A stretch of 64,000 bases of DNA from Candidatus Bipolaricaulota bacterium. Its GTDB lineage: Bacteria; Bipolaricaulota; Bipolaricaulia; UBA7950; UBA9294. Location of the stretch: contig JAUWGE010000001.1 of NCBI GenBank assembly GCA_030606565.1, positions 4,478-68,477 on the forward strand, written 5' to 3'. Below are positions 11,973 through 61,497 of the stretch, piece by piece. Under the pieces are notes generated by a model. That model searched no databases. It was not told the DNA's origin and saw only the letters and a program-made list of their open reading frames with translations. A program made the translations under genes and the position numbers. How positions within the stretch are numbered: position 1 is the stretch's first letter; each line of letters starts with the position of its first letter.

Positions 11973-12054
11973 GCGAGGGTGGCGGAATTGGCAGACGCGC
12001 TAGCCTTAGGAGCTAGTGCCTTAGGGCGTGCGGGTTCGAGTCCCGCCCTTCGCA
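11973..12054 (+). tRNA. tRNA-Leu (anticodon TAG)
   Basis: Acceptor GCGAGGG/CCTTCGC. Anticodon arm CTAGC-CTTAGGA-GCTAG. A long variable arm and T-arm GCGGG-TTCGAGT-CCCGC are present. Confidence 0.8.
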
Positions 12055-12096
12055 GTTGTGGTTACTCGCATTTCCCGCTATAATGATTAAGCCTTT

Positions 12097-12168
12097 GCGG
12101 GAATAGCTCAGAGGTAGAGCACTGCCTTGCCAAGGCAGGGGTCGCGGGTTCAAATCCCGTTTCCCGCT
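12097..12168 (+). tRNA. tRNA-Gly (anticodon GCC)
   Basis: GCGGGAATAGCTCAGAGGTAGAGCACTGCCTTGCCAAGGCAGGGGTCGCGGGTTCAAATCCCGTTTCCCGCT. Confidence 0.85.
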
Positions 12169-12199
12169 CTTTAAAAAAGCTGGGAAGTCAAGGATGTTT

Positions 12200-12283
12200 G
12201 CCGGGGTGGCGGAATAGGCAGACGCAAGGGACTTAAAATCCCTTGAGGGTTTCCTCGTGCGGGTTCGAGTCCCGCTCCCGGCA
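12200..12283 (+). tRNA. tRNA-Leu (anticodon TAA)
   Basis: Acceptor GCCGGGG/TCCCGGC. Anticodon arm AGGGA-CTTAAAA-TCCCT. A long variable arm is present. Confidence 0.8.
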
Positions 12284-12292
12284 CAAGAGATC

Positions 12293-12367
12293 GCGGGGTG
12301 GAGCAATTAGGAAGCTCGTCGGGCTCATAACCCGGAGGTTGCTGGTTCGAATCCGGCCCCCGCAACC
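12293..12367 (+). tRNA. Initiator tRNA-fMet (anticodon CAT), CCA encoded
   Basis: A C1:A72 mismatch (CGCGGGG / CCCCGCA) is present. The anticodon stem has three consecutive G:C pairs with loop CTCATAA. The 3' end is ...ACCA. Confidence 0.75.
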
Positions 12368-12372
12368 AGTCA

Positions 12373-12447
12373 GGCGGCGTAGCTCAACCGGTTTAGAGCG
12401 CTCGGCTCATATCCGAGAGGTTCGGGGTTCGAGTCCCTGCGCCGCTA
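12373..12447 (+). tRNA. Elongator tRNA-Met (anticodon CAT) or tRNA-Ile2 (lysidine)
   Basis: GGCGGCGTAGCTCAACCGGTTTAGAGCGCTCGGCTCATATCCGAGAGGTTCGGGGTTCGAGTCCCTGCGCCGCTA. Confidence 0.7.
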
Positions 12448-12464
12448 GTTGTTTCATTAAATAA

Positions 12465-12538
12465 GGGGGCGTAGCTCTAATCGGGAGAGCGCTGCGTTCG
12501 CATCGCAGAGGTTGGCGGTTCGAATCCGCTCGCCTCCA
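12465..12538 (+). tRNA. tRNA-Ala (anticodon CGC)
   Basis: The G3:U70 identity pair is present. Anticodon arm CTGCG-TTCGCAT-CGCAG. T-loop TTCGAAT. Confidence 0.8.
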
Positions 12539-34061: not shown

Positions 34062-37000
34062 TTATCTCAGGATCGCGAGCTTCTTTACCTCGCTCACGAC
34101 CCACTCACCATTGACCAGCGCGTACAGCTTGTAGAGATACACCCCGTTGGCGAGGTACTCGACGTCGCTGTTCTCGGTGTGCCAGTCAAGGCTCGCGCCA
34201 GGCTCCTCGGCCTCGTAGACCAGTCGGCCGGCAAGGTCGAAGATCTGGACCTTGATCGCCTCGACGTACGCTGCCGCGCCCTTCACCGCAAACGTGGTGG
34301 TGTGGACATCGATGATCGGGTTCGGACTAACTGTAAATGTCAGCACCTCTAGGATTTCACGCAACGAGAGCGTGGGCGGTGGCGGCGGATTCCCCATGGT
34401 CCCTGTACAAGCGCGCCACACCACCTCGCCACATGCAGATCCCGTAGTTATGCCAGATCCGGAGGGTGCGAAATGCAGGATGACCCCACTCGTGAGCGCC
34501 TTCAACCAATAGCCCGTCCAGGGGTCGAGAACTGCACCTGAGCTACCATCGATAGCTTCGTACTCCCCGGTTAGTACGTTGTATGTCCAAAGACGACCCT
34601 CAATCCAGCCAGCAGCCACCGCGTCAGCGAGCGATTTCACTTCACCGTCCTTGGACAAGGTGATCGAGTCACCGCTACCCCACACAACGGGGTAAGGAAC
34701 GCCGATCATGTGCCAGCCCGCTCGCTCCAATAGCAGCGCTTGCTCTCCCACCAGGGAGTCACCTTGGAAGTGAAGCTCCATCGGCTCGCCAAGACAGAGC
34801 CAATACCCGTGCATACAGCAGATGGCGGTGAGCGTCCCTGCCTGACAACTGTCATAGCACTGGCCGTTGTAGTTGAACAGACGCAGCGGATCAATGCCAG
34901 CAAAGACTACTTCCGGGGTATTGTCCTCAAGCGACAGCGGAATCGCGATCATGTGCCAGCCCGCGGACAGGTTCAACACATTCTCGGCCTCGAGGGCAGT
35001 GATCGTCACGTCATCGTAGTCGGACTTGCTAGAATGATTCGTCACTACCAATGTGATCACATACCGACCCGGCACGTCGGGAATGAAGGTTGGGTCAACC
35101 GTATTGCTGTTGGACAACATCGCCCGACTACCGGTGGGCTTCACGGCGATCGACCAATCGTAGCCGACCCAATCGCTTCTTGTATCTCGCGATTCCGACG
35201 CGGACCCATCCAACTGCACCAAGCGCCCCACGGTCACTGTTTGATCTTCTCCCGCGTCCGCCTCGGGACGCGGGCGACTCGGCCCACCGCCGCCGGCAGC
35301 CGTTCCCGATCCGAAGGCAAGGCCGGTCAGGTCGTCGAGTGTGGGTTGGGTTGTGGGAGTAACGGTTACCTCCACACAATTGGTAGCTGCATTGAACACC
35401 TGATTGGAGCATTGCTGCCAGGCCGCGCCATCCCAGTAGGAGATGATCGTACGCGCATTCGACGGGCAAAAGTCGATCGTTAAGCTGTTTACACCTGTAT
35501 CGTCATCCAAATGGACATCCCAGTAGTTGCCGGTTGCGTTTCCCAACGCCGTACCGCCGGGATTGTTGTTGTACGTGGCAGTTGTGATCGTGTGATCTCC
35601 TGCTGCGTCGATATCAATGGAGCCGATCCCGGTCACAGTATCATCAGCAGGGACCGTACCGTCACCAGAGACAGTGTTCGACGACGCCTCCCCCAACTCC
35701 GCTCCTGTCCACGGGCAGTAGTCCACGTTGGCGCTGACCTTGTCGCCAGTGCCATCAGCGTTCACCTCAGTTGTGGGATCATCGGTGCAGGGCGGGACCT
35801 CGTTTGTGCCATCAGTATCCTCTGGCCCACTGTCATCGCCCCACCAGTTGTTGGTGGCGTCAAATTGGTTTGTATCCACGTTTTCAACACCGTACCGCGT
35901 ACTGCCGGTGATATTGTTGAAATGGGCTTCGTTGCTTGCATGATGGACGAACAAGCCGACGACATTCCCCGTCAGGGTGTTTCCCTGCACGCTGACGTTA
36001 GTAGGGCTCTCGCCAGGCATCCCTCCGATAATGATCCCCGAATTCCAATACGTGTTAACACCTACAGGCTTTGAATCAGCATAGGTGAGACCCATGTCGG
36101 TGACGGTATTGTTGGTAATCGTACAATCCGACGACCATATCTGGATGCCGTTGATACCGTCGCTAACTGTGTTGCTGTCAACGGTAACGTTACCGCCAGC
36201 AGCACTAGGATTGACATTGTCTTGTACATGTATTGAAGCGTAATCCCAGTCGCCGGTGCCGTCCCCACCATAATAGTTACACTTGGTCAGGGTGTTATCA
36301 TAAACATAAGTGTATGGAGCGCCAATGACCTGGATACCCGGGTACTTGGTTCCAGAGATGATATTGCCTATCACCTGTACCCTGTCTGCTGTCCCGGTAG
36401 CGCCAGACCTTATTATGTTTATACCCTTATCCTCAGTAGCGTTAATCTCGTTATTGTAGATATAGGTGTATGGGCTGCCAAAGGTCTGGATACATGCAGC
36501 ACCCCAGGTGTTTCCGCAGTCAGATACAATGTTACCAGTTACTTCTACCCTGGTTGCTTCGCTAGTGGCAGGGCAATTTCTTACATATATGCCCTTATCT
36601 GCACAAGAGCTGACTATGCAATTTGAGACTCTACACCCTGTGACACCATTAAGGTAAAATCCATTCTCCCCATTTATCGCCTTGATCCCTTGTACTATTA
36701 CATTATTCGTGGTTATCTCGAAGCAGTTATTGGCTGATTGCGGGGCAGCATATTGCACCAATACCATCTCGGGATTTCCAACATCACCGGTGATGGTCAC
36801 CCCTTTGTTAACGACAATTGCCTGAGTAATTGTATACGTCCCCGCTGCCACATTGACTGTGCTGGCGGTGACTTCGTCCACGCCCTCCTGGATGCGCCCG
36901 GTTGCACCAGTTTGTGGGCTGTCATCATCCACGTTTAGCACGGACAAATCGCCCTGGAAACCGGGTCCGGGATCTGTGTCAGTCCCGCTGTCCAGCCAGG

Positions 37001-38009
37001 GGGTGTAGTCGACATCGGCGCTGACTTCGCCAGCTACGCCGGCTGCGGTGTTGGTGCTCCACCAGTTGCATGAGGCATCAAGGGTTGTTCCAACATCTAG
37101 GTTGTTTACTCCGTAGGCGACACTGCTATAGATGCTGTTGTAATTGATAGTATGGTCTGCATTATGAACAATCCTGACACCGTCTCTAGCACTGCCATAT
37201 ATTTCGTTATACTGAATGTTCACATCGTGAGAATTGGCAGTTCTGATGCCATCGTGGCCAACATTCTTGATTTCGTTGTACTCTACGGTGTTGTTCGAAC
37301 CTACTGAGGAGTAATTGAAAAGGATCCCTGCGCCACCTGAGTTCTCTATCAGGTTATGCTCAATTAGACTATTAGTGATATCAGCAGTCCATGAGTTCAA
37401 GCCAAGGAACATTCCACAACCACCACTAGGACCTATGTCCAGAATCCAATTATAGGACACAGTCAGATTGTCGCACTCGCAGGCGAAGATGCCAGGCGCA
37501 TTCGTTGTCACAGGCGACGCGGAAGGCGTTACGATGTTGTTCTTGATGACTACATCGTCAGCTCTATTCTCGACAATATCGTCACCAGCTTTAAGCGTGA
37601 AGCCATCAATTATAACGCCATCGGCACCATCGAAGATATAGATGGCATTGCCATGTGGGACGTTGGGTCCTTCAATGATGGACTCCGCAACACGCGTACC
37701 GTAACCAGGGGTTCCTGCATTGGCACCGCGGAGCGTTATCCCACCTTGGCTGCCATCGAATTTCAGTCCATAGTGATCCGTCGCGAATGGCCCTCCTGCC
37801 GGGGTATACGTCCCCGCCGCCACGTTGATCGTGTCGCCAGCAGCAGCGGCATCAATGGCAGCTTGTATCTTACAGTAGGGGTCGGCCTGAGTACCACTAC
37901 CAGGCCCTGGGCAGTTGTCATCATCAACATACCAATCCGCCGCCAACCCCACCGCTCCCGATACCAAAATCGTTAATGCCAGCACTCCTACAGCCATCCA
38001 CCGTTTCAT
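34062..38009 (-). CDS. Large secreted right-handed parallel beta-helix (pectate-lyase-fold) protein with C-terminal conserved cassette and sorting-type C-terminal domain
   Basis: The signal peptide is MKRWMAVGVLALTILVSGAVGLA. The N-terminal motif is DWYVDDDNCPGPGSGTQADPYCKIQAAIDAAAAGDTINVAAGTY. Many NxxxxN/IxxN beta-helix rungs follow. The C-terminus is ...VQIFDLAGRLVYEAEEPGASLDWHTENSDVEYLANGVYLYKLYALVNGEWVVSEVKKLAILR. The start is ATG 38009 after AGGAGGAGGA. Confidence 0.8.
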   Translation of the reverse strand: MKRWMAVGVLALTILVSGAVGLAADWYVDDDNCPGPGSGTQADPYCKIQAAIDAAAAGDTINVAAGTYTPAGGPFATDHYGLKFDGSQGGITLRGANAGTPGYGTRVAESIIEGPNVPHGNAIYIFDGADGVIIDGFTLKAGDDIVENRADDVVIKNNIVTPSASPVTTNAPGIFACECDNLTVSYNWILDIGPSGGCGMFLGLNSWTADITNSLIEHNLIENSGGAGILFNYSSVGSNNTVEYNEIKNVGHDGIRTANSHDVNIQYNEIYGSARDGVRIVHNADHTINYNSIYSSVAYGVNNLDVGTTLDASCNWWSTNTAAGVAGEVSADVDYTPWLDSGTDTDPGPGFQGDLSVLNVDDDSPQTGATGRIQEGVDEVTASTVNVAAGTYTITQAIVVNKGVTITGDVGNPEMVLVQYAAPQSANNCFEITTNNVIVQGIKAINGENGFYLNGVTGCRVSNCIVSSCADKGIYVRNCPATSEATRVEVTGNIVSDCGNTWGAACIQTFGSPYTYIYNNEINATEDKGINIIRSGATGTADRVQVIGNIISGTKYPGIQVIGAPYTYVYDNTLTKCNYYGGDGTGDWDYASIHVQDNVNPSAAGGNVTVDSNTVSDGINGIQIWSSDCTITNNTVTDMGLTYADSKPVGVNTYWNSGIIIGGMPGESPTNVSVQGNTLTGNVVGLFVHHASNEAHFNNITGSTRYGVENVDTNQFDATNNWWGDDSGPEDTDGTNEVPPCTDDPTTEVNADGTGDKVSANVDYCPWTGAELGEASSNTVSGDGTVPADDTVTGIGSIDIDAAGDHTITTATYNNNPGGTALGNATGNYWDVHLDDDTGVNSLTIDFCPSNARTIISYWDGAAWQQCSNQVFNAATNCVEVTVTPTTQPTLDDLTGLAFGSGTAAGGGGPSRPRPEADAGEDQTVTVGRLVQLDGSASESRDTRSDWVGYDWSIAVKPTGSRAMLSNSNTVDPTFIPDVPGRYVITLVVTNHSSKSDYDDVTITALEAENVLNLSAGWHMIAIPLSLEDNTPEVVFAGIDPLRLFNYNGQCYDSCQAGTLTAICCMHGYWLCLGEPMELHFQGDSLVGEQALLLERAGWHMIGVPYPVVWGSGDSITLSKDGEVKSLADAVAAGWIEGRLWTYNVLTGEYEAIDGSSGAVLDPWTGYWLKALTSGVILHFAPSGSGITTGSACGEVVWRACTGTMGNPPPPPTLSLREILEVLTFTVSPNPIIDVHTTTFAVKGAAAYVEAIKVQIFDLAGRLVYEAEEPGASLDWHTENSDVEYLANGVYLYKLYALVNGEWVVSEVKKLAILR

Positions 38010-38211
38010 TTCCTCCTCCTTCTCAAACAAAAGAGCTCCCTTTCGGAGCTCCTATGATCCGCTAACAAGTAAAGAACCATTCACTATCAAATCTCTACAC
38101 TTCTCCCCCGCCCTAAGAAGTAAATCACCCATCTACATCACCAGCGTCTCCTGATACCCCCTTTAGCATAACATACAATCTGCAATTATGGATTTTTTAA
38201 TCACATAACTA

Positions 38212-40604: not shown

Positions 40605-43600
40605 TTATCTTAGGATCGCGAGCTTCTTGGTCTCGCTCACAACCCACTCACCATTGACGAGCGCGTACAGCTTGTAGAGATATACCCCGTTTGCGAGGTA
40701 CTCCCCGTAGTCGCTGTCGGTATGCCAGTCTAGGCTTGTTCCAGCTTCCTCGGCCTCGTAGACCAGTCGACCAGCAAGGTCGTAGATCTCGACCTTGACA
40801 GCGTCCACGAACGCCGCGCCCGCACCCTTCACCGCAAAGGTGGTGGTGTGGACATCAACGATCGGGTTCGGGTAGTTGCCGAACTCAAGGTCATCCGCAC
40901 CCACAGAGGGTGAAGGAGGCATCGGAGGAAGATCAGCCGGCACCACAAGGGCCTTTGGCCCCATTGGTGCAAATGAAGCACTGACCGGTGTACCCGAAGC
41001 GTAGAGAAGCTTCAGGGAGAGACCGGACACGTTGGCCCGCACCCAGTAACCGTACCACGGGTTGATCGTGCTGGGCATGGTGTAATCGGTACCGGTTGCC
41101 GAATACGCGTAGATGTCATCGCGTACCCAGCCGGCAGTTGCCGCATCGGCCCAGGTCTTCTCTTGAGCGCCCTTTATCACCTTAATCGCGCTCTTCGGAT
41201 AGCTCCACGGAGCGCTTACCTGATGCCAGCCTGTGCACGAGATGTTGATCGTGACATCGCTCGTCACTTGACTACCAGAGTCTGTGACGCTCTTACTCGC
41301 GGGCAGGCTCACCCAGTATCCGAACTCGGGCTCGACCATCGAAACGATGTCGTAAACCTCAGTTGCGCAGTTCCAGCGATAGGCAACCGTGCCGAACAGG
41401 GCACTCGGCGTACCGCTGTTTAACGGGACCGAGACCATGTACCAGCCAGCCGCCGCACCGTAGATGTGGGACTTGCCAGGCACGGTTCCGCAGAGCGTCC
41501 AACCAGTAAAGTCGACGTCGCCAAAGACGTTGACTCCCTTGACAGGCTCCACTCCCCAACCGTTATCCGTAGCATCGAGCATTCCGAGCCCGTCGTTTCG
41601 AGCGAGGATCGGCGCATCGAAGCAGTTGCCGTGGAGGTCGAACGTATCAGCATTCCCAAGGGTTGTGACCAAGAGAGCTGTGGCACCGCCGTACACCTTA
41701 TTCACGTTGGTGATGTCAGCCGCTCCGCTTTCCATCGAGATACCAGTAACGTTGCCGGTGAGGATGTTCCCCTTGACCTCGAGCGGGTTGTTGATCGTGC
41801 CGCCCCGCAACCGGAGACCAACATCGATCATGCCCTCGATGGTGTTGTTCTTCACCGGGGTCTCGTTCGGGGTTGTGATGTCGATTCCCACGCGGAGATT
41901 GCCGGTGTTCGTGACTGTGTTCCCCACGAGGGTGTTGTTTGTCCCCGCCAACATCCGAATTCCAACCGCCACATCAGTGCTATCACCCGTCACCGTCGTG
42001 AAGTCCTTGACGGTGTTGTTAATGATGTCGCAGTTGTCAGGGACAGTACCTGCTCCGGATGAATCAAGCACGTCAATACCCACCGCGTAGGTGGAGCTTC
42101 CAGCGTTGATGACCGTGTTGCCGTCTACCACGTTGTTGTCCGCACCCGCGTTCGCGCCGCCAATGTCATCGAGACGGATCGCAGCAAAGCGGGAGGCGGC
42201 GACGTTCACCGCGTCCTTCGCGGCATTCTCAACGGTGTTTCCGACGATGTTGTTGTTATCACCACCGTTGACGAGGATCCCGTCCTGGCTTACCGAGAAG
42301 ATCGTGTTGTTCAGGATTTCGTTGTTGTTAAAGTTAACAACGTCCATGCCGATACCGCCGGTCAAGATGTTCTTGATCGTGTTGTTCTTGACAATCTGGT
42401 TCCCACCGCCAAACAGGATTCCCGCACCGCCGCCGGTGACGGTGTCCACCGTGTTCCCGGTGACTTCGCAGTTGGCGACCGTTAGGTCGATCCCATCGAA
42501 ACCACCGCTCACGCTCTTGACGGTGTTGTCCTTCACGAGAACGTTCCCGCCGGCGACGTTGATCCCATCACCCAGAGTCACCGCAGTGATCTTGTTTCCG
42601 ATCACCTGATCGTTCACGCCGGTACCGATGCCGTTACCACCGTTTACACCGGTGAACTCGTTGTTGCTGATCGTGTTGTTCCCGGCGGACGTGATCCCGG
42701 CGCCACCGACACTGACGAACGTGTTGGTGCTGATCATGTGGTTCGTTCCGCCACCCGCGTTGGCAATACCGGCCGCGCCAAGGTTGTTGAACGTGTTTCC
42801 AGTCACGGTGAAGTTCGAGTTCGCCCCGACATTCATCAGGATACCGTTAGCCGCAGCACCAAGAACGGAGTTGTCCGTAATCGTGGCATTTGTAGCACCA
42901 CTCGTCGCGGCGTCGATCGCGTCTCCAGCAGTTGTTGCATCCAGTTGATTACCCGAAATGATCGCGTTCGAGCTGCCGAACTGAATCGCATCACCACCGG
43001 TCCCACCACCTGTCACCTGGTTGTCACGGTATTGGTTGTTTGAACCGCCAGCGTCGAGGATCCCGATTCCCCCCGCGGCCTGCGCGTACGTGAAGATGTT
43101 TCGCAGGACCTGGGTGTTGTTGGAGTCGCCCGCTAGGTCGATGCCATTCGTGCGCAGCTGGCCGGCAATGTTGTCCCGGATCACACTGTTCGTGTACCCG
43201 TTCGCGCCCCCGACGAGCTGCCCCGCGAAGTTGATCGTGTTGTTCCAGGCAGAAAGGGTGTTGTAAGACGCAGCGCTCGCGTTCTCGATGAAGAACGTGG
43301 GAGCCGGAACAGCCAACGCTCCGATGACCTGGTTATCGTAGACCTGGGCACCGATCCCAAGCGTAAGTTGAATGGCTGGAACAGCGCCGATCGTTAAGTT
43401 GAACGTGTTATTTTTTACTATACAGTCGTTTCCTGCAAGCTGGATGGCAGCCGTGGCAAAAGCGCCTGCTCCGTCGTTGAACGTCATGCCTTGGATGCGC
43501 GCATTGCCGTTACACACGATCGCGTCGTCGGCAGCACCACCAGACGAAAAGATATCGAAGTTCTGAAGGGTGACGTCCTGGATCCCGATGTTGACGAGGA

Positions 43601-43943
43601 TTCCAACGGCATTGTTTGTCGTCAGGCGCGCACCGGTAACCTCTCCAACGATTGTCTGGCCGTTTCTGGAAACGATCAGCGTCGTGACAGCGACCGGTAT
43701 CGCACCAGCCCCGAGCTGAATTCCGGTAGCAGGGACACAATACGTGCCGTCCAGCTGAAGCGTTCCAGCCGGGTTGGCGCCCGTACCGTCAGCCACTGGG
43801 AGCGCAACCGCGGGACCGTAGTTGGCAGCAACACCAAGGTCATAAGTCCCCAGCGGGCACGCTGCAAAGATCGGGAGGGCAAAGACGGCCAGCCCCAGTA
43901 GGGCCGCCATCAAAATCCCGATTTTTATCCGATTTAATTTCAC
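40605..43943 (-). CDS. Large secreted parallel beta-helix repeat protein with conserved cassette plus sorting-type C-terminal domain
   Basis: GTG start after GGAGGT. The signal peptide is MKLNRIKIGILMAALLGLAVFALPIFA. There are dozens of N-rich beta-helix rungs (NNTI.GN, VKNNT). The C-terminal 200 aa are ~75% identical to the S8 protease tail. The last 110 nt are near-identical to 34062..34170. Confidence 0.8.
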   Translation of the reverse strand: MKLNRIKIGILMAALLGLAVFALPIFAACPLGTYDLGVAANYGPAVALPVADGTGANPAGTLQLDGTYCVPATGIQLGAGAIPVAVTTLIVSRNGQTIVGEVTGARLTTNNAVGILVNIGIQDVTLQNFDIFSSGGAADDAIVCNGNARIQGMTFNDGAGAFATAAIQLAGNDCIVKNNTFNLTIGAVPAIQLTLGIGAQVYDNQVIGALAVPAPTFFIENASAASYNTLSAWNNTINFAGQLVGGANGYTNSVIRDNIAGQLRTNGIDLAGDSNNTQVLRNIFTYAQAAGGIGILDAGGSNNQYRDNQVTGGGTGGDAIQFGSSNAIISGNQLDATTAGDAIDAATSGATNATITDNSVLGAAANGILMNVGANSNFTVTGNTFNNLGAAGIANAGGGTNHMISTNTFVSVGGAGITSAGNNTISNNEFTGVNGGNGIGTGVNDQVIGNKITAVTLGDGINVAGGNVLVKDNTVKSVSGGFDGIDLTVANCEVTGNTVDTVTGGGAGILFGGGNQIVKNNTIKNILTGGIGMDVVNFNNNEILNNTIFSVSQDGILVNGGDNNNIVGNTVENAAKDAVNVAASRFAAIRLDDIGGANAGADNNVVDGNTVINAGSSTYAVGIDVLDSSGAGTVPDNCDIINNTVKDFTTVTGDSTDVAVGIRMLAGTNNTLVGNTVTNTGNLRVGIDITTPNETPVKNNTIEGMIDVGLRLRGGTINNPLEVKGNILTGNVTGISMESGAADITNVNKVYGGATALLVTTLGNADTFDLHGNCFDAPILARNDGLGMLDATDNGWGVEPVKGVNVFGDVDFTGWTLCGTVPGKSHIYGAAAGWYMVSVPLNSGTPSALFGTVAYRWNCATEVYDIVSMVEPEFGYWVSLPASKSVTDSGSQVTSDVTINISCTGWHQVSAPWSYPKSAIKVIKGAQEKTWADAATAGWVRDDIYAYSATGTDYTMPSTINPWYGYWVRANVSGLSLKLLYASGTPVSASFAPMGPKALVVPADLPPMPPSPSVGADDLEFGNYPNPIVDVHTTTFAVKGAGAAFVDAVKVEIYDLAGRLVYEAEEAGTSLDWHTDSDYGEYLANGVYLYKLYALVNGEWVVSETKKLAILR

Positions 43944-51501: not shown

Positions 51502-51574
51502 GCGCCCGTAGCTCAGAGGACAGAGCGTCGCACTGCGGCTGCGAAGGTCGGAGGTTCGAGTCCTCCCGGGCGTA
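51502..51574 (+). tRNA. tRNA-Arg (anticodon read as GCG)
   Basis: GCGCCCGTAGCTCAGAGGACAGAGCGTCGCACTGCGGCTGCGAAGGTCGGAGGTTCGAGTCCTCCCGGGCGTA. The anticodon loop is CTGCGGC. Confidence 0.6.
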
Positions 51575-52396
51575 CTCAGTGCAGCTTAACCGAGAACCGA
51601 TGGTGAAAGGTTCTCCGCATGGTGAACTCAGCCGTCCTCCACAGATCGCTGGTATCCAGTCGAAGCACTTGCTTTCCGCATCGAACCGCTACAATCATTG
51701 CAACATCTCGCCTCTGCTACGTGCAGAGGAAAGGGGGTGATCCGTATGACAGAAGGTCCAAGACGGTCAGCGGTCACCCCCTTGTTCACAGTCCTTTAAG
51801 TTGTCGAGCGATTTCTACCACCCAGCGAGAATCTCAGGGCTAATCTTGATCCCGGTATTCGCATGTCCGGGACGGTCATGAGAAGATGCTTGTAGGAGCG
51901 GCTGCTGACCTCAATAGGGCATAAGCAGGAAGTTACATGGGTTCACACCTACCTAATGGTTTCGCGGGCCACCCGGCCACGATCGACGATGTCCCGGCGG
52001 TCGTGGATTGCTCGCCTGTTTCAACCCGTCACCCGCCGAGACGCAAGCGTCACACAGAAAGCACAGGCCCTGTTCACACTCTCCTCACATACGTGGCGTA
52101 GATTATCAACATACGGGAGCACAAAACACCTCCATACCGAATGAGACGAGGGACCAAAAGGCCCCTCGCTTCTTTTGCCATCGGGGGCAATGGGGGTGAA
52201 AACAAGCGTTATCGACTGAACAGCTCAAGCACTTCTACGCCTAAAGAGACTCAACTCGCCTGCTTTTGCTACACAAGATACGCTTTCGTTGCGAGAGTGG
52301 CTAATCCCTCTCAATCAGTTTTCGTGCTATACTTTAGGACGCAGGGTTACTGAACGGGAAATACAAAAGACGCCAATCAGGAGGAAGGTGCGTGAG

Positions 52397-52870
52397 ATGA
52401 GACGGACTGCTCAACTGCTTCTTTTCGTGTCTCTGATATTGGTGCCGGTCCTGATAGGACAAGGGATGGACATTGGGGCTAAGTTTGGTACGCAAACTTC
52501 TTCCCTTGTGATCCAGGCTGAGTGGGATATTTCACCGAACCTCACTATGACAATCTTTCTTGAGCCTCAACTTGGAAGTATTGTCAACCCAGCCACTGCC
52601 CAGACGCCGTCTTTTACCATCGGGCTAATAGGGAAGTACCGGTTTCCCAGTGCGAATTCCCCATTCGTACCATACTTAGGGTTGGGCGGGAGCCTCAAAC
52701 AACAGGGCCCCGAGACAACGATAGCAATAGAAGCACTCGCTGGCACACGCTTTTACCTTGCGTCAAACCTGTACCTGTTCGCTGAAGCGGCATTCTCTAT
52801 CTTCTTCCCAATAACCGATGTGGCAAACTGGTACAAGGACCTATATCTAGGGTTTGCTTTCCGCCTGTGA
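52397..52870 (+). CDS. Small outer-membrane beta-barrel (OmpW/OmpA-beta-like) protein
   Basis: The start follows AGGAGGAAGG. The signal peptide is MRRTAQLLLFVSLILVPVLIGQG. Amphipathic beta strands follow. The C-terminus is LYLGFAFRL. Confidence 0.55.
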   Translation: MRRTAQLLLFVSLILVPVLIGQGMDIGAKFGTQTSSLVIQAEWDISPNLTMTIFLEPQLGSIVNPATAQTPSFTIGLIGKYRFPSANSPFVPYLGLGGSLKQQGPETTIAIEALAGTRFYLASNLYLFAEAAFSIFFPITDVANWYKDLYLGFAFRL

Positions 52871-53115
52871 TCTTCGCTAATCGACCCTCTCGGAGTTGTC
52901 GCGGTCGCCCTAAAAGGGGGATGGCTACCTATCAACTCTCTGCGCTCACGATCTAGATTGGCATCTCGTGGTGGAGGAAGAAGGCGCAATCAGAGGAGGG
53001 AATTGTCAGCTGTGCCCGAATCTACGCAACGAAAGCGATCAACTGTAGCAGCTCTTCCAATGGCAGGAGACTGCTTCTTTTTGTGCTATATTGGCAGCAC
53101 TAAAGGAGGATGCTG

Positions 53116-53844
53116 ATGGGCAAAGTGCTAATTTGGAATCTATTGCTGGTGATGGTTTTGACTCTTGCAGCCATGGCGGACGAGACCCCAGCGCCCTCGT
53201 CTCAAGTGTATTACGGAGATATCTCCGAAACGGCAATTCTCTGGTTTGCTGGAACGAGTGTCACAACAGAGATCCACGGCGATTTCGCTCTCTCAGGGAG
53301 CCTGACGATCAAGGATGAGGCAATTCCTTTCACCACATGTGGGGAGATGAGCGGATTCGGAGAGGGAGATACCGCGACCCTCACCGGTGTGATGTGGACG
53401 ATCTTTACTACAGCGGGCACGTTGGGCAATGGAGAAGAAGTTGAAATCCGAGGGGGCCTTACTGTCGATAGCGGGGATTATCTCCTGGCCACCGAAGCTA
53501 CAGGAGAGGGTACAGGAACCTTCTACATGATGATCCTCTTGACAGACGCAAGGATTGAAGTTGGAGGCACTGTGTACGGATCAGCAAGTGGTAGTTTCGT
53601 ACCGCCGGATGACCCGTACACGATGCAACTCGACGTATCAGGAACCATGCGCTTTGAAGTCACCTCTACAATCCAGTCCTTAAGGAATACACCAATCGAT
53701 CTGGGGACCCTGCAGGAAAGGCTGCCATGGGACCTAGGCATGTGGCCGGAGGATCTGTTTTCCCAACTTCTCTTGCTGCTAGGCGAGTCCCCTACGGAGA
53801 AGGGAACAGTTTCGCAGAGTGGGTGTAATGCCCAGGGTTCCTAG
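53116..53844 (+). CDS. Secreted hypothetical protein
   Basis: The start follows AAGGAGG. The signal peptide is MGKVLIWNLLLVMVLTLAAMA. The mature part is G/T/E-rich. Confidence 0.4.
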   Translation: MGKVLIWNLLLVMVLTLAAMADETPAPSSQVYYGDISETAILWFAGTSVTTEIHGDFALSGSLTIKDEAIPFTTCGEMSGFGEGDTATLTGVMWTIFTTAGTLGNGEEVEIRGGLTVDSGDYLLATEATGEGTGTFYMMILLTDARIEVGGTVYGSASGSFVPPDDPYTMQLDVSGTMRFEVTSTIQSLRNTPIDLGTLQERLPWDLGMWPEDLFSQLLLLLGESPTEKGTVSQSGCNAQGS

Positions 53845-54105
53845 CCTGGGCGGAACTCTTGTTGAGCTCCTGATGGCACTAAGGAGAGGCACAGTTACTT
53901 CTCGCAGCAAATGGTCGCGGTTGTTGCAAGGCCTAGGAGGGCAAGGCTTAGGCAGCAGGGATTCCCAGCCTATAGGCTGTCAACCTCTGAATTGGTCGAC
54001 GTGGCTGCTTCTCCTACTAAGACATAACCAGGCTCTTGACAGCAAGAGACCCACGAGGAGTATAATGGAAGGTAGGAATCCGTTTAAGACGGGAGGTTTG
54101 ACAGA

Positions 54106-55128
54106 ATGAAGAAGCTTTCGATTGTGCTAGGAGTTATAATAATCCTACTCGCGGGCGGGACGGCCCCTGTATTGGGCACCCTTCAAGTCCCACCCCTAGT
54201 CCAGCCTCAGCTACAACCGCTCCTGAAGTATCTCCTTCGTCCGGACCTGGAAGTTGAAGAAATCTGGTGTACAACTCCCGGAGGTACGTTGGCCTTCAGC
54301 GTGATAAATAGCGGATTTAGTCCTCTCCCCGATGGATGGGAGTCATACACCCACCTCACAGCCCGCGTTTCCCATATTTCTGGAGGCATAGAGGTACCTC
54401 TCGGTGAATTCAATCTCTGCCTTCCCTCTAGCACTGAGAATGGCGGAATTGGGATACCTGATGGGATTTCCAACTATGTGACAAACATCATCTTAGAAGG
54501 TGAGGCAATCGTCAAGGTCGAAGTCGACTATCACGATCGAATCCAGGAACTAAACGAGGTGAACAACTTCGAACTGACGATTTACACCCCATGTGGAAGG
54601 GGAACAATGCCCGATCTCGAAGCTTCCTTTGTTGAGTTGCCAGTAGACATCTTGCGTCCAGGAACCGACTTGAATAACTACATCGGGATCTTGATCACGA
54701 ATCTCGGAAGAGGTCTAGCAAAAGGAACTGGGAACTGGCCCACCGAAGGCTATATCATCGATGTTGTTCTCTCGTCTGATATGGTTGTTCCTCCAGGCGC
54801 TACTATGGTTGTCACCCTAGCTGGGCAAGTGTTTCCAGTACCCGTTCCCTCCACCTATCGCGTCTATCGAGAAGACATGCTCATCGGAAGAATATGGACC
54901 ACAGAGGACATCCCGAGAGAGGAAGAGGTTATTTACGGCTTGCATAGGGAGCCTGGATGCGAAGTGATTGGTCTTCCAATGGAATACCCATCTGTAGTTT
55001 GGCCTAGTTCGGGAGGATATAGAGCCTTCTATATCGTTGTCCTTGTTGACCCTCTAAACAACATATCTGAAGCTAGAGAAGACAACAACAAGTACTTCTT
55101 CCGCTTGATGATCGAAGAGCCGCTGTAA
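54106..55128 (+). CDS. Secreted protein with two CARDB-like domains
   Basis: The signal peptide is MKKLSIVLGVIIILLAGGTAPVLG. The motifs PDLEVEEIWCT...ELNEVNNFEL and ...EAREDNNKYF match the CARDB pattern E.NE.NN. Confidence 0.6.
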   Translation: MKKLSIVLGVIIILLAGGTAPVLGTLQVPPLVQPQLQPLLKYLLRPDLEVEEIWCTTPGGTLAFSVINSGFSPLPDGWESYTHLTARVSHISGGIEVPLGEFNLCLPSSTENGGIGIPDGISNYVTNIILEGEAIVKVEVDYHDRIQELNEVNNFELTIYTPCGRGTMPDLEASFVELPVDILRPGTDLNNYIGILITNLGRGLAKGTGNWPTEGYIIDVVLSSDMVVPPGATMVVTLAGQVFPVPVPSTYRVYREDMLIGRIWTTEDIPREEEVIYGLHREPGCEVIGLPMEYPSVVWPSSGGYRAFYIVVLVDPLNNISEAREDNNKYFFRLMIEEPL

Positions 55129-55985: not shown

Positions 55986-57569
55986 ATGAAAGGTCGGATG
56001 ATAGTCGGGCGCTTCCCCGGCAGGCGTGCCTTGGGATCAATTGTGCTGCCCCTACTCCTGATCTTGCCCGTTGTGATAACTTGTGCTGAGGAATGTCCAC
56101 CTGCTGTCCGGGCTTACGATCAGGCAGTCGTCCCGGAGGAGGTCGTTCAGGGCGAGATCATCACCGTGACCGCTTGGGTACAGAATACAAGCTGCGACAC
56201 GCTTGGGGCGTTTGAGGTCGCAGCTTACTACGATGTGGTGGATGAAAACGACCCTGATGCTCACTTGATCAGTACGCAGACCGTTCCTGGCTTAGACCCG
56301 TGCGAGGAAAAGCAACTGACCTTCTATTGGGACACTACAGACATCCCACCGGGGACCTATCCGATTCAGGTTTGGGCCGACTCCTCGAAAAAGTTCAACC
56401 AGGAGCCTGAAGGCGACAACATCTGTAAAGCAAGGGTCATAACGAGAATCAATCCCGTTCCGCCCCTTATTCGAGCGAGCAAGACATTCGTGGACATTGA
56501 CGGTGGTTTACCAGAGTCAGGGGACACCGTTGAGTATGAGATCATCATCGGTAACTATGGCCTCGGCGACCAAAGTGATAACTTAGGGCCCGAATTTGTC
56601 GATGAAATTCCCGCTTTTATGGCCTATATAGATGGGGCGGCTAGCGCCACGTCAGGGACGATCAGCTTCGATGCCTCAGGTAATAGCATTGTCTGGAATG
56701 GCTCCATCCCCGCTTTAGGGTCTGTGACCATCAACTTTCAGGTGAATATAGATGAGGCAGCGCCCGGTGGATCACTGATCTGCAATCAGGGCGTTGTAAC
56801 TTGGGATATAGACGGTGATGGTACAAACGACTCCCAAACGCCCACCGATGATCCAAGCACGTCGGCGCCCGAGGACCCCACGTGTCTCGTCATTAATTTC
56901 CCGCCACAGGCCCATATCGATGTGAGTAAGACGGTGACCGACTTAAACGGCGATTCCCCTGAACCTGGAGACATCGTTGAATACGAGATCATCATCGGCA
57001 ATGCAGGCAACGGCGACCAACAGGACAATCCCGGTGACGAATTTGTAGATTATATCCCGCCCTGGATGAGTTACGTTAAGAGATCGGCGCAAGCCACGTC
57101 AGGAAAGGTGAGGTTTCACCGAGTTAGCTGGCTTCGTCGAATCCTGATGCACGATGAAGATAGAGGGAATTGGGTTACCTGGAACGGAAGTATCCCCGCT
57201 GGGGGATCGGTGATCATCACGTTTAAGACAAAGATCGATAAGGACGCGCCTGCTGAGTTGATCGTCTGCAACCAAGGGACGGTAAACTGGGACACTGACG
57301 GAGACGGCACAAACGACACCGCGGAGCCAACTGATGACCCAGATACGGTGAAGCAGGATGATCCTACCTGTCTTCTTCCGATTGCCTCTCCACCCGATGT
57401 TTCTCCCCCACCGGGGCAAGTCGATCCTGCTCTCCCGGCTGATCCTCCCGCCGGTTGCGCGGCCCCCACCTTGTCTGAATGGGGGCAGATCGCGTTGATC
57501 GGCCTCCTAGCGCTTGCATTCACTGGGGCGCTGTGGCGGAGAAATCGGCTTTTACCCCGGCGAAGGTAG
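55986..57569 (+). CDS. Secreted CARDB + 2x DUF11-repeat protein with IPTL-CTERM-like C-terminal sorting signal
   Basis: A CARDB-like N-domain ends ...EPEGDNICKA. Two repeats of ...GD.VEYEIIIGN.G.GDQ.DN.G.EFVD.IP..M.Y......ATSG......W.G.IPA.GSV.I.F....D match DUF11. The C-terminus is APTLSEWGQIALIGLLALAFTGALWRRNRLLPRRR, a PTLSEWG motif followed by TM and Arg-rich segments. Confidence 0.65.
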   Translation: MKGRMIVGRFPGRRALGSIVLPLLLILPVVITCAEECPPAVRAYDQAVVPEEVVQGEIITVTAWVQNTSCDTLGAFEVAAYYDVVDENDPDAHLISTQTVPGLDPCEEKQLTFYWDTTDIPPGTYPIQVWADSSKKFNQEPEGDNICKARVITRINPVPPLIRASKTFVDIDGGLPESGDTVEYEIIIGNYGLGDQSDNLGPEFVDEIPAFMAYIDGAASATSGTISFDASGNSIVWNGSIPALGSVTINFQVNIDEAAPGGSLICNQGVVTWDIDGDGTNDSQTPTDDPSTSAPEDPTCLVINFPPQAHIDVSKTVTDLNGDSPEPGDIVEYEIIIGNAGNGDQQDNPGDEFVDYIPPWMSYVKRSAQATSGKVRFHRVSWLRRILMHDEDRGNWVTWNGSIPAGGSVIITFKTKIDKDAPAELIVCNQGTVNWDTDGDGTNDTAEPTDDPDTVKQDDPTCLLPIASPPDVSPPPGQVDPALPADPPAGCAAPTLSEWGQIALIGLLALAFTGALWRRNRLLPRRR

Positions 57570-57603
57570 AGGGAAACCGCTTTGTGAAGAAAACCGTGAG
57601 AAG

Positions 57604-58125
57604 ATGAAGAAACCGACAAGCCAAAACATGCGGAAGCGGAGGATAATCCGCCCTTATCTGATCTTCGTGGTCTGCCTTGCCGGAGCTTCGGCGTTGCTTG
57701 CGTGGGTCACAAGGAACGAGTGCGCGGTGAGTTTCGTTCAGACAGGCGTGGCGCGCTGTACCAGCTTCGTCCTCAACTTCCTCAACATGCAGACTGTGGT
57801 GGTAGGGCATACCATCGAGTCTAGCCGATTTCACATCGAGGTTATCACGGCTTGTACAGGGCTTTATGTCGCCAGCGTATTCCTGCCGGCGGTGATCGCC
57901 TATCCTTCCCGATTGATCGCCAAGCTGATCGGAGCCACCTGTGGAATCGCGGCGATCTTCGCGCTTAACATCATCCGCTTGGTGAGCCTTTTCTATATCG
58001 GAATCTACTTGCCCAGTTTCCTAGAGAAGGCCCACCTTCTCGTGTGGCAATCCCTGTTCATCATCTTTGCCCTGTTCCTGTGGTTATTCTGGGCCGAAAA
58101 GGTGGCTCATGCCTCTTGCAAGTAA
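57604..58125 (+). CDS. Small exosortase/archaeosortase-like polytopic membrane protein (candidate sorting enzyme)
   Basis: About 170 aa with 5-6 TM segments. ...FHIEVITACTGLYVASVFL... is a CxG motif resembling exosortase CSG. ...IAAIFALNIIRLVSLFY... is an N-x-x-R motif. It lies 35 nt after the IPTL-CTERM protein. Confidence 0.5.
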   Translation: MKKPTSQNMRKRRIIRPYLIFVVCLAGASALLAWVTRNECAVSFVQTGVARCTSFVLNFLNMQTVVVGHTIESSRFHIEVITACTGLYVASVFLPAVIAYPSRLIAKLIGATCGIAAIFALNIIRLVSLFYIGIYLPSFLEKAHLLVWQSLFIIFALFLWLFWAEKVAHASCK

Positions 58126-58711
58126 GGACACTCCTCGGTCAACAACTCACCTCCTGCGTTTCGCCGCTACATTCCTTGTGTGTTTCGTGCTCGTTTCTTT
58201 TCTCTGGCTCTTTGTCTCCCCTATTTACAATCGAGTGATCGTCGGGGTCACCAACGCGGTGCTTCCGTTGGTCGAACACCCGTCAATGACCAGGGTGGGG
58301 GCGGAAGGGGAAAGCGTTTTGGTCTATCGCGATGAGCCAGGAGCCCAAGGAGGGCGTCTTTTTTTGAAATTCGCCACCCGTTACGTATATCTCGCATTCG
58401 TACCGCTTTTGGCTCTCTTTCTGGCTACTCCCAGACTGCGAGTGGTGCGGCGAATTAAGCTCGCTCTTATAGGATTGATTATTCTAGCTAGCTTTCATAT
58501 CACTTATCTAATTACAGCTGTACGGCTGGGGTATATCTTTGTTGGCCTGAGTAAAGTGGGCAGGGCGGAGTACTGCTTTTGCGACTGGATGCAGGTCCTT
58601 CTGCGAATACTGTGGGAAGTGGCTGCCGTTCTCATTTGGTGGGCTTTGACCTTCAGATATTGGTGGAAGCGCCCTCTTGTCCAGAGCAAAGGCTCTTTCG
58701 CCAAATCATGA
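58109..58711 (+). CDS. Polytopic membrane protein co-transcribed with the sortase-like gene
   Basis: MPLASKDTPRSTTHLLRFAATFLVCFVLVSFLWLFVSP... with 4 TM segments. It overlaps the upstream gene by 17 nt. Confidence 0.4.
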   Translation: MPLASKDTPRSTTHLLRFAATFLVCFVLVSFLWLFVSPIYNRVIVGVTNAVLPLVEHPSMTRVGAEGESVLVYRDEPGAQGGRLFLKFATRYVYLAFVPLLALFLATPRLRVVRRIKLALIGLIILASFHITYLITAVRLGYIFVGLSKVGRAEYCFCDWMQVLLRILWEVAAVLIWWALTFRYWWKRPLVQSKGSFAKS

Positions 58712-58819
58712 TGCTACCATATGTTCCGACCTTAAACGGACTAATTCAGCACTGCAACAGGGCCTTTCACATTTTTAGGGACTTCACCCTTGTGCTATGG
58801 TGGAGTAGGCGGAGGAGGT

Positions 58820-60106
58820 ATGCACAAACCGAGTTTGTTTGAGTTTTGCTCTTGGGTGTGGATGGGAAAAGCGTTAGGTGCGATCATCTTCTTATCATCC
58901 GCCCTCTTCCTTTTGGTAGGATGCGGAAACAGCGTGCCCATTGCCGTATTCACTGCGTCACTCTCCACGGGAGTTGCTCCCCTTACGGTGGAGTTCGATG
59001 CCTCTGTATCGTTAGATCCTGATGGGACTATCATAAGCTACCAATGGGACTTTTGTGACGGGAACCTGGGTTCTGGTCCACAAACGGTGCACACTTTTCA
59101 GAACGCTGGCACCTACAAGGTCAAACTCATAGTCATCGACAATAAAGGAGCGAGCGATTCGGCCACCCTGTCGATTCAAGTAACCCCTCCTGCCAACGTC
59201 ATTCCCGTAGCGAGTTTCACTGCTATGCCCACCTCTGGAATAAGGCCACTTGCCGTAAGCTTTGATGCCTCTGCCTCCGTGGATAGCGATGGGGTCATTA
59301 TCACATACACCTGGGACTTCGGCGATGGAGTAAGTGGGTTTGGGATGATGGTCTCTCACACCTACACAAGCTCGGGGACTTATACCGTCACCCTCACAGT
59401 TACCGATAACGAGGGCGCGGCCGATGATAAGACCACGCTTATCACGGTCTCGGAACCGCCAAGACCGGTCGCTCGCTTTACCGCCACCCCTACCGCCGGG
59501 CCGGTCCCCCTCACGGTGGAATTCGATGCCGGTGCATCCTACCACGAGGACGCGGAGAAAAACATCGCCTCTTACCGGTGGAGCTTCGGCGATGGTGGGA
59601 GCGAAGCCGCAGAGACGGTCATCCACGTATACGAGAGCGCAAGGACTTACACGGCGACACTCACAGTTGCAGACGAGGACGGGGTCGAAGATGTAGCGAC
59701 CCAGACCATCCAAGTGTCAGGGCCCGAGTTCCTCGAGCTAGGTGATAGCGTGTGCAACGGTGAAATCAGGCTAACGCTCCGCGCTGTACGGTCTGCTAGC
59801 GCGATAGGAGTATGGGAACCCGATCCGGAACATATCTATGTTATCGTCGATTTGAGAGCGGATGGGATCAAGGATGGCCAACTGATATGGATCGATGACT
59901 TTAAGATCGTTTGTGGTGACAGTGAGGTTCGAGTCACCAAGGACATAGCCACATTCTCACTGGATCATTATTTCAAAGGCGGAAACCTGGATGCGGGCCA
60001 GTTTGTGGATGGGGAGCTCGCATTCGAAGTGCGTACCGCCGATTTTTACATCCTCGAATACACCCAGTGGGGCGAGGAACCCCTCAAGTTCCGCTTGCGC
60101 CCGTAG
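58820..60106 (+). CDS. Lipoprotein with three PKD domains and a C-terminal domain; stop codon lies inside a duplicated tRNA-Arg sequence
   Basis: The start follows GGAGGAGGT. The lipobox is LLVGCG. Signatures WDFCDG, WDFGDG and WSFGDG are present. The last codons ...FRLRP* are encoded by the tRNA copy at 60097. Confidence 0.7.
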   Translation: MHKPSLFEFCSWVWMGKALGAIIFLSSALFLLVGCGNSVPIAVFTASLSTGVAPLTVEFDASVSLDPDGTIISYQWDFCDGNLGSGPQTVHTFQNAGTYKVKLIVIDNKGASDSATLSIQVTPPANVIPVASFTAMPTSGIRPLAVSFDASASVDSDGVIITYTWDFGDGVSGFGMMVSHTYTSSGTYTVTLTVTDNEGAADDKTTLITVSEPPRPVARFTATPTAGPVPLTVEFDAGASYHEDAEKNIASYRWSFGDGGSEAAETVIHVYESARTYTATLTVADEDGVEDVATQTIQVSGPEFLELGDSVCNGEIRLTLRAVRSASAIGVWEPDPEHIYVIVDLRADGIKDGQLIWIDDFKIVCGDSEVRVTKDIATFSLDHYFKGGNLDAGQFVDGELAFEVRTADFYILEYTQWGEEPLKFRLRP

Positions 60107-60169
60107 ATCAGAGGACAGAGCGTCGCACTGCGGCTGCGAAGGTCGGAGGTTCGAGTCCTCCCGGGCATA
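60097..60169 (+). pseudogene. Degenerate second copy of tRNA-Arg (GCG) (72/74 nt identical to 51502..51574)
   Basis: GCGCCCGTAGATCAGAGG...CCTCCCGGGCATA. The C-to-A change in the D-stem and the CGGGCAT acceptor strand create D-stem and C2:A71 mismatches. Confidence 0.5.
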
Positions 60170-60259
60170 AAGGCCTTTTCCCGATACGCCCTCAGTATCA
60201 CAGGCGATCACTATATCGGAGGTGGTTCAACCCTCCTGTTAAAAGGTTCGCTCGCCGGT

Positions 60260-61117
60260 CTAAGGGCTCTCTGGGATAGTCTCCTCTACTATCCCACCCT
60301 GCAGTTTCTCCCTTTGCTCCTTTGTGACATCGATGATGGCTGTCCCTTCCGGGACATCGAACTTGAACTCCTCATCAGGAATCTCGATGTTGACCGTAAC
60401 ATCCTTTAGCCTTTGCTGGTAGATCAGTTCACCATCCGGGGAATACGCCTCTATCCTCCTCTGTAAACCATCCACCCCTGAAACCCATGCCTTGACTCGT
60501 GCAACTTCTGCGTCTTCTTCCTGGGTCACATCGCCTTGAAAGACATAAACTTCCTCACCATCCAGATCCTCAATGCCGAGGTACTCAATACTGCCTTTGT
60601 CGATCTTGCCCAGCACGCCCTCAATGTCCGCCTGCCCCTCGACCAATTCTTTGATGGTCTCTGGAAACTCCTCCCTCAATGCGGCCAGATCGACCTTGGA
60701 AGCCATCTTAAAAAACGGCAGATATTGCCAGAGTGTGAGTCCATCAGAATACAGGTATTGCTTGGCCCTTTCGTCTTTTCCCATGCACATCTCCATCCTC
60801 AATCGGTCCGGTCTGACGAATGCGATTGTGCCATATGTAGTCTCACCCTCTGTAAAGACTATCTCGAATGTCGCGCGATAGGAGCTCAAACTTCGAATCT
60901 TGCTCTGAAGATCGCTTAATAATGCTTCTGCATCTGCCTTAGGTTCGGTTATCTGCGGAACCTCGCCGGGTGGGCTTTGAACCGTTAACTCCCTGGGGGC
61001 GGCTACATCAGGGGAGGGAGGCCCTTTCCCCTTATCACCACAGCCTGTAAGACCAAGCAAAGCGATCAGCAGAGCAATCCCCCAGATGTAGCGGGGTCTT
61101 TTCCTCTTTGCCACCAT
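60260..61117 (-). CDS. LolA-like / DUF4292-type lipoprotein
   Basis: MVAKRKRPRYIWGIALLIALLGLTGCG is a lipobox. The mature domain has LolA-fold-like composition. The assignment is tentative. Confidence 0.4.
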   Translation of the reverse strand: MVAKRKRPRYIWGIALLIALLGLTGCGDKGKGPPSPDVAAPRELTVQSPPGEVPQITEPKADAEALLSDLQSKIRSLSSYRATFEIVFTEGETTYGTIAFVRPDRLRMEMCMGKDERAKQYLYSDGLTLWQYLPFFKMASKVDLAALREEFPETIKELVEGQADIEGVLGKIDKGSIEYLGIEDLDGEEVYVFQGDVTQEEDAEVARVKAWVSGVDGLQRRIEAYSPDGELIYQQRLKDVTVNIEIPDEEFKFDVPEGTAIIDVTKEQREKLQGGIVEETIPESP

Positions 61118-61497
61118 TGGATCCCTCCATTCGATAAATCCCAACCATTCACCTACAGGATAGCCGAGCAATTTTCAAATTCTGACGGAGTTGGGTTCGG
61201 CCTGGATCGGTGTTATCAGCGTCGCGGTGGATTTTAGACATAACACCACAAGTAGTTGCGCATCTCCTTGTCGCATAATGTTCTCTGGAACAACGTCCTT
61301 CGGGCCTATGCGCGCTTATTCAAGGCGTTGTGTATAGACGGATAAGCATCTTACCAGGCTATGTGGGAAAGTTTGTCACACCTCTGGGGCCAGATTAAAA
61401 TACTCAAAGTAACATGGCGAGCAAAAGACGTTTTTTTATTCTTACTCTGCTGACCTTAGTTGTGGTGTCACTCACAGGGTGTTTCTCGTTTCGCGGA

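Follow-up and report, generated by a model that had tools for sequence, protein, structure and literature searches.

The stretch of Candidatus Bipolaricaulota DNA analysed here (64,000 nucleotides, the window) carries three consecutive plus-strand genes that very probably constitute a dedicated exosortase H (XrtH)/IPTL-CTERM sorting cassette, that is, one enzyme with one adjacent substrate. The first (55986..57569, with an alternative start at 55944) encodes a secreted surface protein of 527 residues, counted from the ATG at 55986, which acts as the candidate cargo; the second (57604..58125) encodes a minimal exosortase of the XrtH type, with 173 residues; and the third (58109..58711, ATG at 58109) encodes an XrtH-associated membrane protein of 200 residues, the partner. 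The gap between the cargo stop and the xrtH ATG measures 34 nucleotides (nt), and the partner open reading frame (ORF) begins inside the last 17 nt of xrtH, with a Shine-Dalgarno-like AAGGTGG upstream of its ATG; this overlap suggests translational coupling. No terminator-like site was found between the three genes, and promoter and terminator scans gave no excess over shuffled sequence. A first-pass annotation of this DNA had described a cargo tail made of PTLSEWG, a transmembrane (TM) helix and an Arg cluster, a protein of about 170 residues lying 35 nt downstream, and a second membrane gene at 58109..58711 overlapping the 3' end of the first. The tail is as described and passes the NCBIfam model TIGR04174, the size of the enzyme and the overlap are right, and only the spacing needs correcting, to the 34 nt counted. 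The pairing is real and conserved but already catalogued: all three parts match existing NCBIfam families, and the locus is an ordinary example of its kind.

The cargo starts with a signal-peptide-like segment, MKGRMIVGRFPGRRALGSIVLPLLLILPVVITCA, in which n-, h- and c-regions can be told apart by eye, and continues through a CARDB domain (residues 47-147) and two consecutive DUF11(CLIPPER)/DUF7927 domains, which are CnaA-like, to a Pro-rich linker. The C-terminal end, APTLSEWGQIALIGLLALAFTGALWRRNRLLPRRR, carries the tripartite sorting signal of motif, hydrophobic helix and basic cluster; it begins at residue 493 (nt 57462) and occupies 57462..57566 on the plus strand, with APTLSEWG abutting the 17-residue hydrophobic helix QIALIGLLALAFTGALW directly, without a spacer, and the basic cluster RRNRLLPRRR following. 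Its score for TIGR04174 (IPTL_CTERM), 20.8 bits, lies just above the cut-off of 20.5. When all six frames of the window were scanned for the pattern, no second IPTL-type tail was found, nor does the window contain a VPXXXP tail. The cargo was also considered as a midcut-by-XrtH protein (NF033207, 15.4 bits against a cut-off of 45 for a model of 175 positions); this was rejected because only the sorting-signal region matches, residues 487-519 corresponding to model positions 31-63. DUF7927 and DUF11, the latter now called CLIPPER, are CnaA-like and contain isopeptide bonds that join Lys to Asn within the molecule; they typically build the stalks of cell-bound fibrillar adhesins (PMC12617251). 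In the cargo, K166/D206/N267 and K315/D355/N429 are spaced in a way that fits the Lys/Asp/Asn triad published for DUF7927 (PMC12617251), which makes them candidate isopeptide residues. In the literature searched on exosortase H (XrtH) and IPTL-CTERM, a single paper was found with experimental work on an IPTL-CTERM protein: Methylomirabilis lanthanidiphila has a cell-attached S-layer protein that carries such a tail, and the tail was not detected among the peptides of the mature protein (PMC8671808).

Of the subfamily models, exosortase H (TIGR04177) fits the 173-residue protein best, with 82.6 bits over positions 4-153 of 158, followed by archaeosortase B (ArtB; 65.1 bits), XrtX (60.5 bits) and XrtM (50.4 bits). 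The protein passes the general exosortase/archaeosortase signature TIGR04178 (47.0 bits, cut-off 23), matches archaeosortase A (ArtA; TIGR04125) with an E value of 5.6e-6, and falls below the cut-offs of the long models, scoring 21.4 bits for Pfam PF09721 (cut-off 25.7; model positions 124-252 of 254) and 17.2 bits for TIGR02602, EpsH (cut-off 105.6; model positions 109-236 of 241). An alignment of 28 homologues (36-65% identity) holds C84, T85, P101, K107, G110, N122, R125, S128, H144 and W148 invariant. Cys84 (codon 57853-57855) lies in ITACTGLY, Asn122 (57967-57969) and Arg125 (57976-57978) lie in ALNIIRLV, and His144 (58033-58035) follows, all on the plus strand; Cys, Arg and His have been proposed to form the catalytic triad in both exosortases and archaeosortases (Haft preprint 10.1101/2023.06.07.544157), and the activity of ArtA requires Cys173, Arg214 and Arg253, of which Cys173 and Arg214 correspond to the Cys and Arg of XrtH (PMC9263693). 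Models of mini-sortases with 150-175 positions exist for XrtH, ArtB, XrtX, XrtM, ArtE, XrtY and XrtF; judged by its coverage of them, the 173-residue protein is a complete minimal exosortase of a known size class and not a split one.

The first-pass annotation had seen a Cys/Asn/Arg exosortase pattern in this protein, to which His144 is to be added, and had suggested searches with exosortase/archaeosortase profiles, which gave the pass for TIGR04178 and the best score for TIGR04177 over the full model; of its two proposals, a split or a minimal exosortase, the second stands, as full mini-sortase models are covered, and the first does not. Nor is the pair a new nomination for the IPTL-CTERM enzyme, as had been implied. 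The Joint Genome Institute (JGI) labels relatives 'exosortase H (IPTLxxWG-CTERM-specific)', GenBank gives the name exosortase H [Candidatus Bipolaricaulota bacterium] to a mate from the same cluster that is at least 90% identical (MCK4391559.1), and the second membrane protein is covered by NF041730; the corresponding cluster mate of the partner, also at 90% or more, is MCK4391558.1, hypothetical protein KAX17_01455. The exact XrtH and partner proteins are themselves present in NCBI, on a contig of 190 kb.

In the AlphaFold2 (AF2) model of XrtH, built from the 28-sequence alignment (predicted local distance difference test, pLDDT, 82), there are five helices and a three-stranded sheet: helices 6-37 and 39-59, three short strands within 65-79, and helices 83-99, 104-135 and 143-166. 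The best reading of this model is an enzyme with its N-terminus inside and four TM helices, which would place C84, N122/R125 and H144 near the outer face, the side on which the cargo motif must lie. It is favoured because of the distribution of Lys and Arg across the family (mean counts of 7.0 in the N-terminus, 2.3 in the loop 100-107 and 2.0 in the C-terminus) and because helix 40-59 is the least hydrophobic and most amphipathic one (moment 1.09).

The cassette recurs far beyond the window. Forty distinct loci came from looking up exact proteins and from a single scan of the species genomes in GTDB, and the order cargo, xrtH, partner is repeated among them in Bipolaricaulota, Methylomirabilis, Fraserbacteria, Chloroflexota and others. 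In the window's own clade, whose loci bear the label Bipolaricaulia or uncultured Thermotogae (L001, L004/L007, L013-L020, L023 and L025), every locus has a CARDB/DUF7927 cargo with the tail (T)IDAPTLSEW[GA], helix and RRR, encoded on the strand of xrtH and 0-150 nt upstream of it, and the flanking genes vary from locus to locus. Loci whose XrtH exceeds the TIGR04177 cut-off (Bipolaricaulota, including L010, L011, L026 and L030) have one to three cargos of about 170-250 residues upstream, ending in VPTLTEWGLIAL...RRR, and Terriglobia and Dehalococcoidia loci follow the same cargo-xrtH logic. Altogether, IPTL-like tails occur near xrtH in 27 of the 40 loci; 33 such tails were found among 2,997 ORFs, compared with one in reversed controls and 0.45 per replicate with shuffled tails, and the first-pass expectation that IPTL-CTERM cargo would co-occur with this gene in other genomes is thus borne out. 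The XrtH of the Methylomirabilis locus L021 is 40% identical to that of the window. At L021 (Candidatus Methylomirabilis oxygeniifera), a Thr-rich protein of 313 residues with an IPTL-like tail is encoded at 351-1292, 4.7 kb upstream of xrtH; it is close in size to the S-layer protein identified by experiment in M. lanthanidiphila (312 residues), a likeness of size alone.

The partner is a nearly constant companion of xrtH. In a profile search, a gene of its family lies directly downstream of xrtH, starting at most 200 nt from its end, in 36 of the 39 loci with enough sequence; two Terriglobia loci (L046, L047) have xrtH and cargo and no partner. The window's partner matches a single model, that of the exosortase H-associated membrane protein (NF041730; E 2.8e-5 and 23.9 bits over positions 2-165 of 184), and 66 of the 82 members of the partner family match it as well, all below threshold, with a best E value of 2.8e-7. 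The family is small: from 1.84 billion proteins, a cut at E<=1e-3 yields 586 representatives. Loci of the window's clade carry one copy each, and several canonical Bipolaricaulota and Fraserbacteria loci have two to four divergent paralogues in tandem (L010 8530-10645, L026 6505-8640 and L033 6520-8699, as well as L030, L027 and L045). Further variants are a partner-partner tandem protein (P0258) and partners carrying a C-terminal PrsT-like TPR domain or a terminal SEC-C zinc motif (P0257/P0287/P0289/P0317; P0242/P0279 and L011 8578-9210). PF28117 is recorded on two relatives of the partner.

Several points weigh against assigning the locus to a dedicated XrtH/IPTL-CTERM cassette. The enzyme misses the TIGR04177 cut-off of 86 bits, an operational naming threshold, by 3.4 bits; the cargo tail reaches 11.0 bits for Pfam PF18203, below its cut-off of 20.8; and the partner lies 11 bits under the NF041730 cut-off of 35. 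The word dedicated is judged from 64 kb of sequence. The outer-face placement of the active site relies solely on the positive-inside rule, and with five TM helices, as an alternative, the triad would come to lie at the inner face; no solved structure of any XrtH relative was found in the PDB. No biochemistry of XrtH was found in the open-access literature searched, and the cleavage site, the acceptor and the role of the partner are all deduced. As to the first of these points, relatives of the enzyme score 103.1 (P0019), 100.5 (P0021), 86.0 (P0006) and 82.3 bits (P0003), and homologues with 46-59% identity to it reach 86-103 bits, at or above the cut-off; the curated threshold thus runs through the window protein's own clade, and by its sequence the protein is best called XrtH-type.

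The proposed pathway begins with export of the cargo by its N-terminal signal peptide, after which the C-terminal helix would hold it in the cytoplasmic membrane with the Arg cluster inside. XrtH, with Cys84, Arg125 and His144 near the outer face, would then attack at or beside PTLSEWG and remove the helix, a step that we infer because of family membership, the invariant residues and the analogy with ArtA. For the resulting acyl-enzyme there would be two possible outcomes: transfer to an acceptor, either a lipid or part of the envelope, which would anchor the cargo as in ArtA substrates, or hydrolysis, which would release it. The second outcome on its own, with XrtH acting purely as an endopeptidase that removes the helix hydrolytically and sets the CARDB/CLIPPER protein free without re-anchoring, is the rival that survives best, being unlikely but of some weight: no obvious acceptor-making enzyme is encoded at the locus, and cleavage and attachment in a single step are not established for exosortases (Haft preprint 10.1101/2023.06.07.544157). 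Against it, ArtA substrates are lipid-anchored after cleavage (PMC9263693), the IPTL-CTERM S-layer protein of M. lanthanidiphila is cell-attached (PMC8671808), and the CLIPPER/DUF7927 domains of the cargo are of a type found in the stalks of cell-bound adhesins (PMC12617251).

The co-translated partner would be an obligatory accessory subunit of XrtH, probably a non-catalytic, sortase-like scaffold, and not a missing half of the enzyme. Its interpretation as such a half, the 173- and 200-residue proteins being the products of a divided exosortase with about eight TM helices, draws on the adjacency and overlap of the two genes, their nearly constant company, a summed size like that of a full-length EpsH-type enzyme, and one fused protein of 340 residues (P0270, L048 1263-2285), an XrtH-partner fusion in a single ORF that is seen on one scaffold only and is possibly an artefact. 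A second, apparent fusion (L045, 6001-7141) was discarded, as xrtH there appears to be frameshifted into the partner frame, either as a pseudogene or through an assembly error in a Bipolaricaulota metagenome-assembled genome. A split is nevertheless very improbable: the 173-residue protein spans whole mini-sortase models (XrtH 4-153 of 158; ArtB 26-154 of 156) and, in the long EpsH models, aligns to the C-terminal catalytic half alone; the partner is encoded downstream of it, not upstream; two Terriglobia loci (L046, L047) do without a partner, and many others have two to four tandem copies of it. Moreover, no EpsH model matches the partner, whose weak likeness is to whole mini-sortase models or the catalytic core, not to the N-terminal half.

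This likeness leads to a different idea, for which the balance is about even, namely that the partner is a mini-exosortase paralogue that has degenerated and is catalytically dead, and that would form a heteromer with XrtH as its accessory subunit. The AF2 model of the partner (82 sequences, pLDDT 84) contains a helix at 11-55, three strands in 61-89, a short helix at 97-106 and helices at 112-146 and 152-186, an order of structural elements identical to that in the XrtH model; both termini are basic, and a strongly basic loop, PRLRVVRRIK, lies at the site of the XrtH loop PSRLIAK. Aligned with hhalign, the profiles of the two families are collinear, weakly so (score 23.9, P 0.0055, probability 6.6%), as compared to 15.7 +/- 3.0 for block-permuted controls, of which 1 in 60 reached the real score, and 13.8 and 13.2 for reversed ones. 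Pairwise phmmer searches link the families 42 times at E<=0.01, against 4 for a reversed-sequence control, and the weak matches of the partner profile beyond its own family in a local database are mostly XrtH ORFs. Sortase models are weakly matched by some of the 82 partners, archaeosortase D (ArtD) by 22 of them, collinearly, XrtX by 5, pacearchaeosortase by 2 and ArtF by 1; the ArtD matches of the partner cover model positions 14-130 and 60-130 of 150. The partner family has no conserved Cys, Arg or His and no Cys/Arg/His triad, and the single XrtH-partner fusion protein (P0270) counts on this side as well.

Another rival keeps the enzyme a mini-sortase and changes its subfamily, for instance to ArtB, so that its signal would be a different one from IPTL-CTERM. 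ArtB gives the second-highest model score, JGI names several relatives archaeosortase B (VPXXXP-CTERM-specific), and some of them score at least as high for ArtB as for XrtH. The window protein and its relatives are all far from the ArtB cut-off of 150 (TIGR04144), however, and every adjacent tail belongs to the PTL..WG type, with no VPXXXP tail among them; there is hardly any chance that this rival is correct, and the JGI naming was rejected on the model scores. That the cargo and the membrane genes are neighbours by coincidence, for which nothing speaks beyond borderline hidden Markov model scores, is effectively refuted by synteny, the gene order being repeated with different flanking genes in many lineages.

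Among known systems, the cassette thus corresponds to that of XrtH, IPTL-CTERM and NF041730, which provides the best enzyme model over its full length, the tail model that is passed, the sole match of the partner and the same gene order. Within this system the window's clade departs from the canonical Bipolaricaulota/Fraserbacteria form: the latter has several cargos of 170-250 residues (VPTLTEWGLIAL), an ITECTA context and two to four tandem partner paralogues, whereas the former has one large CARDB/CLIPPER cargo with IDAPTLSEW[GA], an ITACTG active-site context and one partner. ArtA with PGF-CTERM in Haloferax volcanii belongs to the same superfamily and shares the tripartite signal and the conserved Cys and Arg, which mutagenesis has shown to be needed in ArtA (PMC9263693); it differs in being archaeal and larger (a model of 271 positions), in its PGF signal, and in having many substrates, which are lipid-anchored. 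Exosortase A/EpsH with PEP-CTERM (TIGR02602, PF09721) has a homologous catalytic core; this enzyme of about eight TM helices has an N-terminal half that is missing from the window protein, and the window's cassette has neither a PEP motif nor an exopolysaccharide locus. JDVT-CTERM with its myxosortase-type protease (10.1101/2023.06.07.544157) is similar in that one target stands in tandem with the enzyme, the conserved two-gene neighbourhood serving as the evidence, and differs in the enzyme family, which is Rce1/CPBP-like and unrelated to exosortases. Sortase with LPXTG follows an analogous logic, in which a Cys/Arg/His enzyme is combined with a C-terminal signal of motif, helix and basic tail; its fold is unrelated, its active site lies outside the membrane, and LPXTG is separated from the helix by a spacer.

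Downstream of the partner, a plus-strand gene at 58790..60106 encodes a lipoprotein-like protein with an LLVGC lipobox, three PKD_4 domains and DUF4352. Its orthologue follows the partner in the closest locus (L001, 9159-9884) and not in L004 or L007, and its product bears no IPTL tail; it may count as a fourth cassette member, in the closest relatives only. The stop of this gene overlaps the second of two copies of tRNA-Arg(GCG) (51502-51575 and 60096-60170), a direct repeat of 75 nt with 97% identity, and this copy, with a change in the acceptor stem, scores 53.3 bits in Rfam as compared to 67.8 for the first. The two copies bracket a block of 8.5 kb that contains the cassette and four other genes for secreted proteins; no integrase or GC shift was found between them, and the pair could reflect a tRNA duplication or an old insertion (genomic island). 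Six tRNA genes (Leu, Gly, Leu, Met, Met, Ala) are clustered at 11973-12538, and no Rfam families other than tRNAs were found. Upstream of the cargo, three plus-strand genes at 52289-55128 encode proteins of 193, 244 and 340 residues with N-terminal hydrophobic leaders, the last with CARDB, for which no IPTL tail and no family assignment were found. Two very large secreted proteins of the beta-helix/NosD type are encoded on the minus strand (34062-38030 and 40605-43943), the first of them with a PKD-like domain and a CHU_C C-terminal domain, similar to those of type IX secretion (T9SS); similar beta-helix genes follow the xrtH array of L010, and in L004 and L007 a 1000-residue protein with a T9SS-type tail follows the partner. 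A LolA-like/DUF2092 protein, with the fold of outer-membrane lipoprotein sorting, is encoded at 60260-61171 on the minus strand and may bear on the presence of an outer membrane in this organism.

The value of the locus as a discovery is small, since the catalogues already list both the associated membrane protein and the pairing of IPTL-CTERM with exosortase H, and near-identical genes already carry labels. Its compactness, with an enzyme of 173 residues, one partner of 200 residues and one substrate, makes it about the simplest exosortase system to reconstitute, and it could serve questions that concern the whole family: the position of the cut, the coupling of cleavage to transfer onto a lipid or the envelope, and the accessory role. 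The one lead of some novelty here, and a modestly new one, is the possible pseudo-sortase nature of the partner. If true, the working enzyme would be a pair of sortase and pseudo-sortase, adding a structural principle for minimal exosortases, and the pseudo-subunit, which is duplicated two to four times in some loci and fused to TPR or SEC-C in others, would be the variable module of the system, one that could serve for docking substrates or for connecting the enzyme with export.

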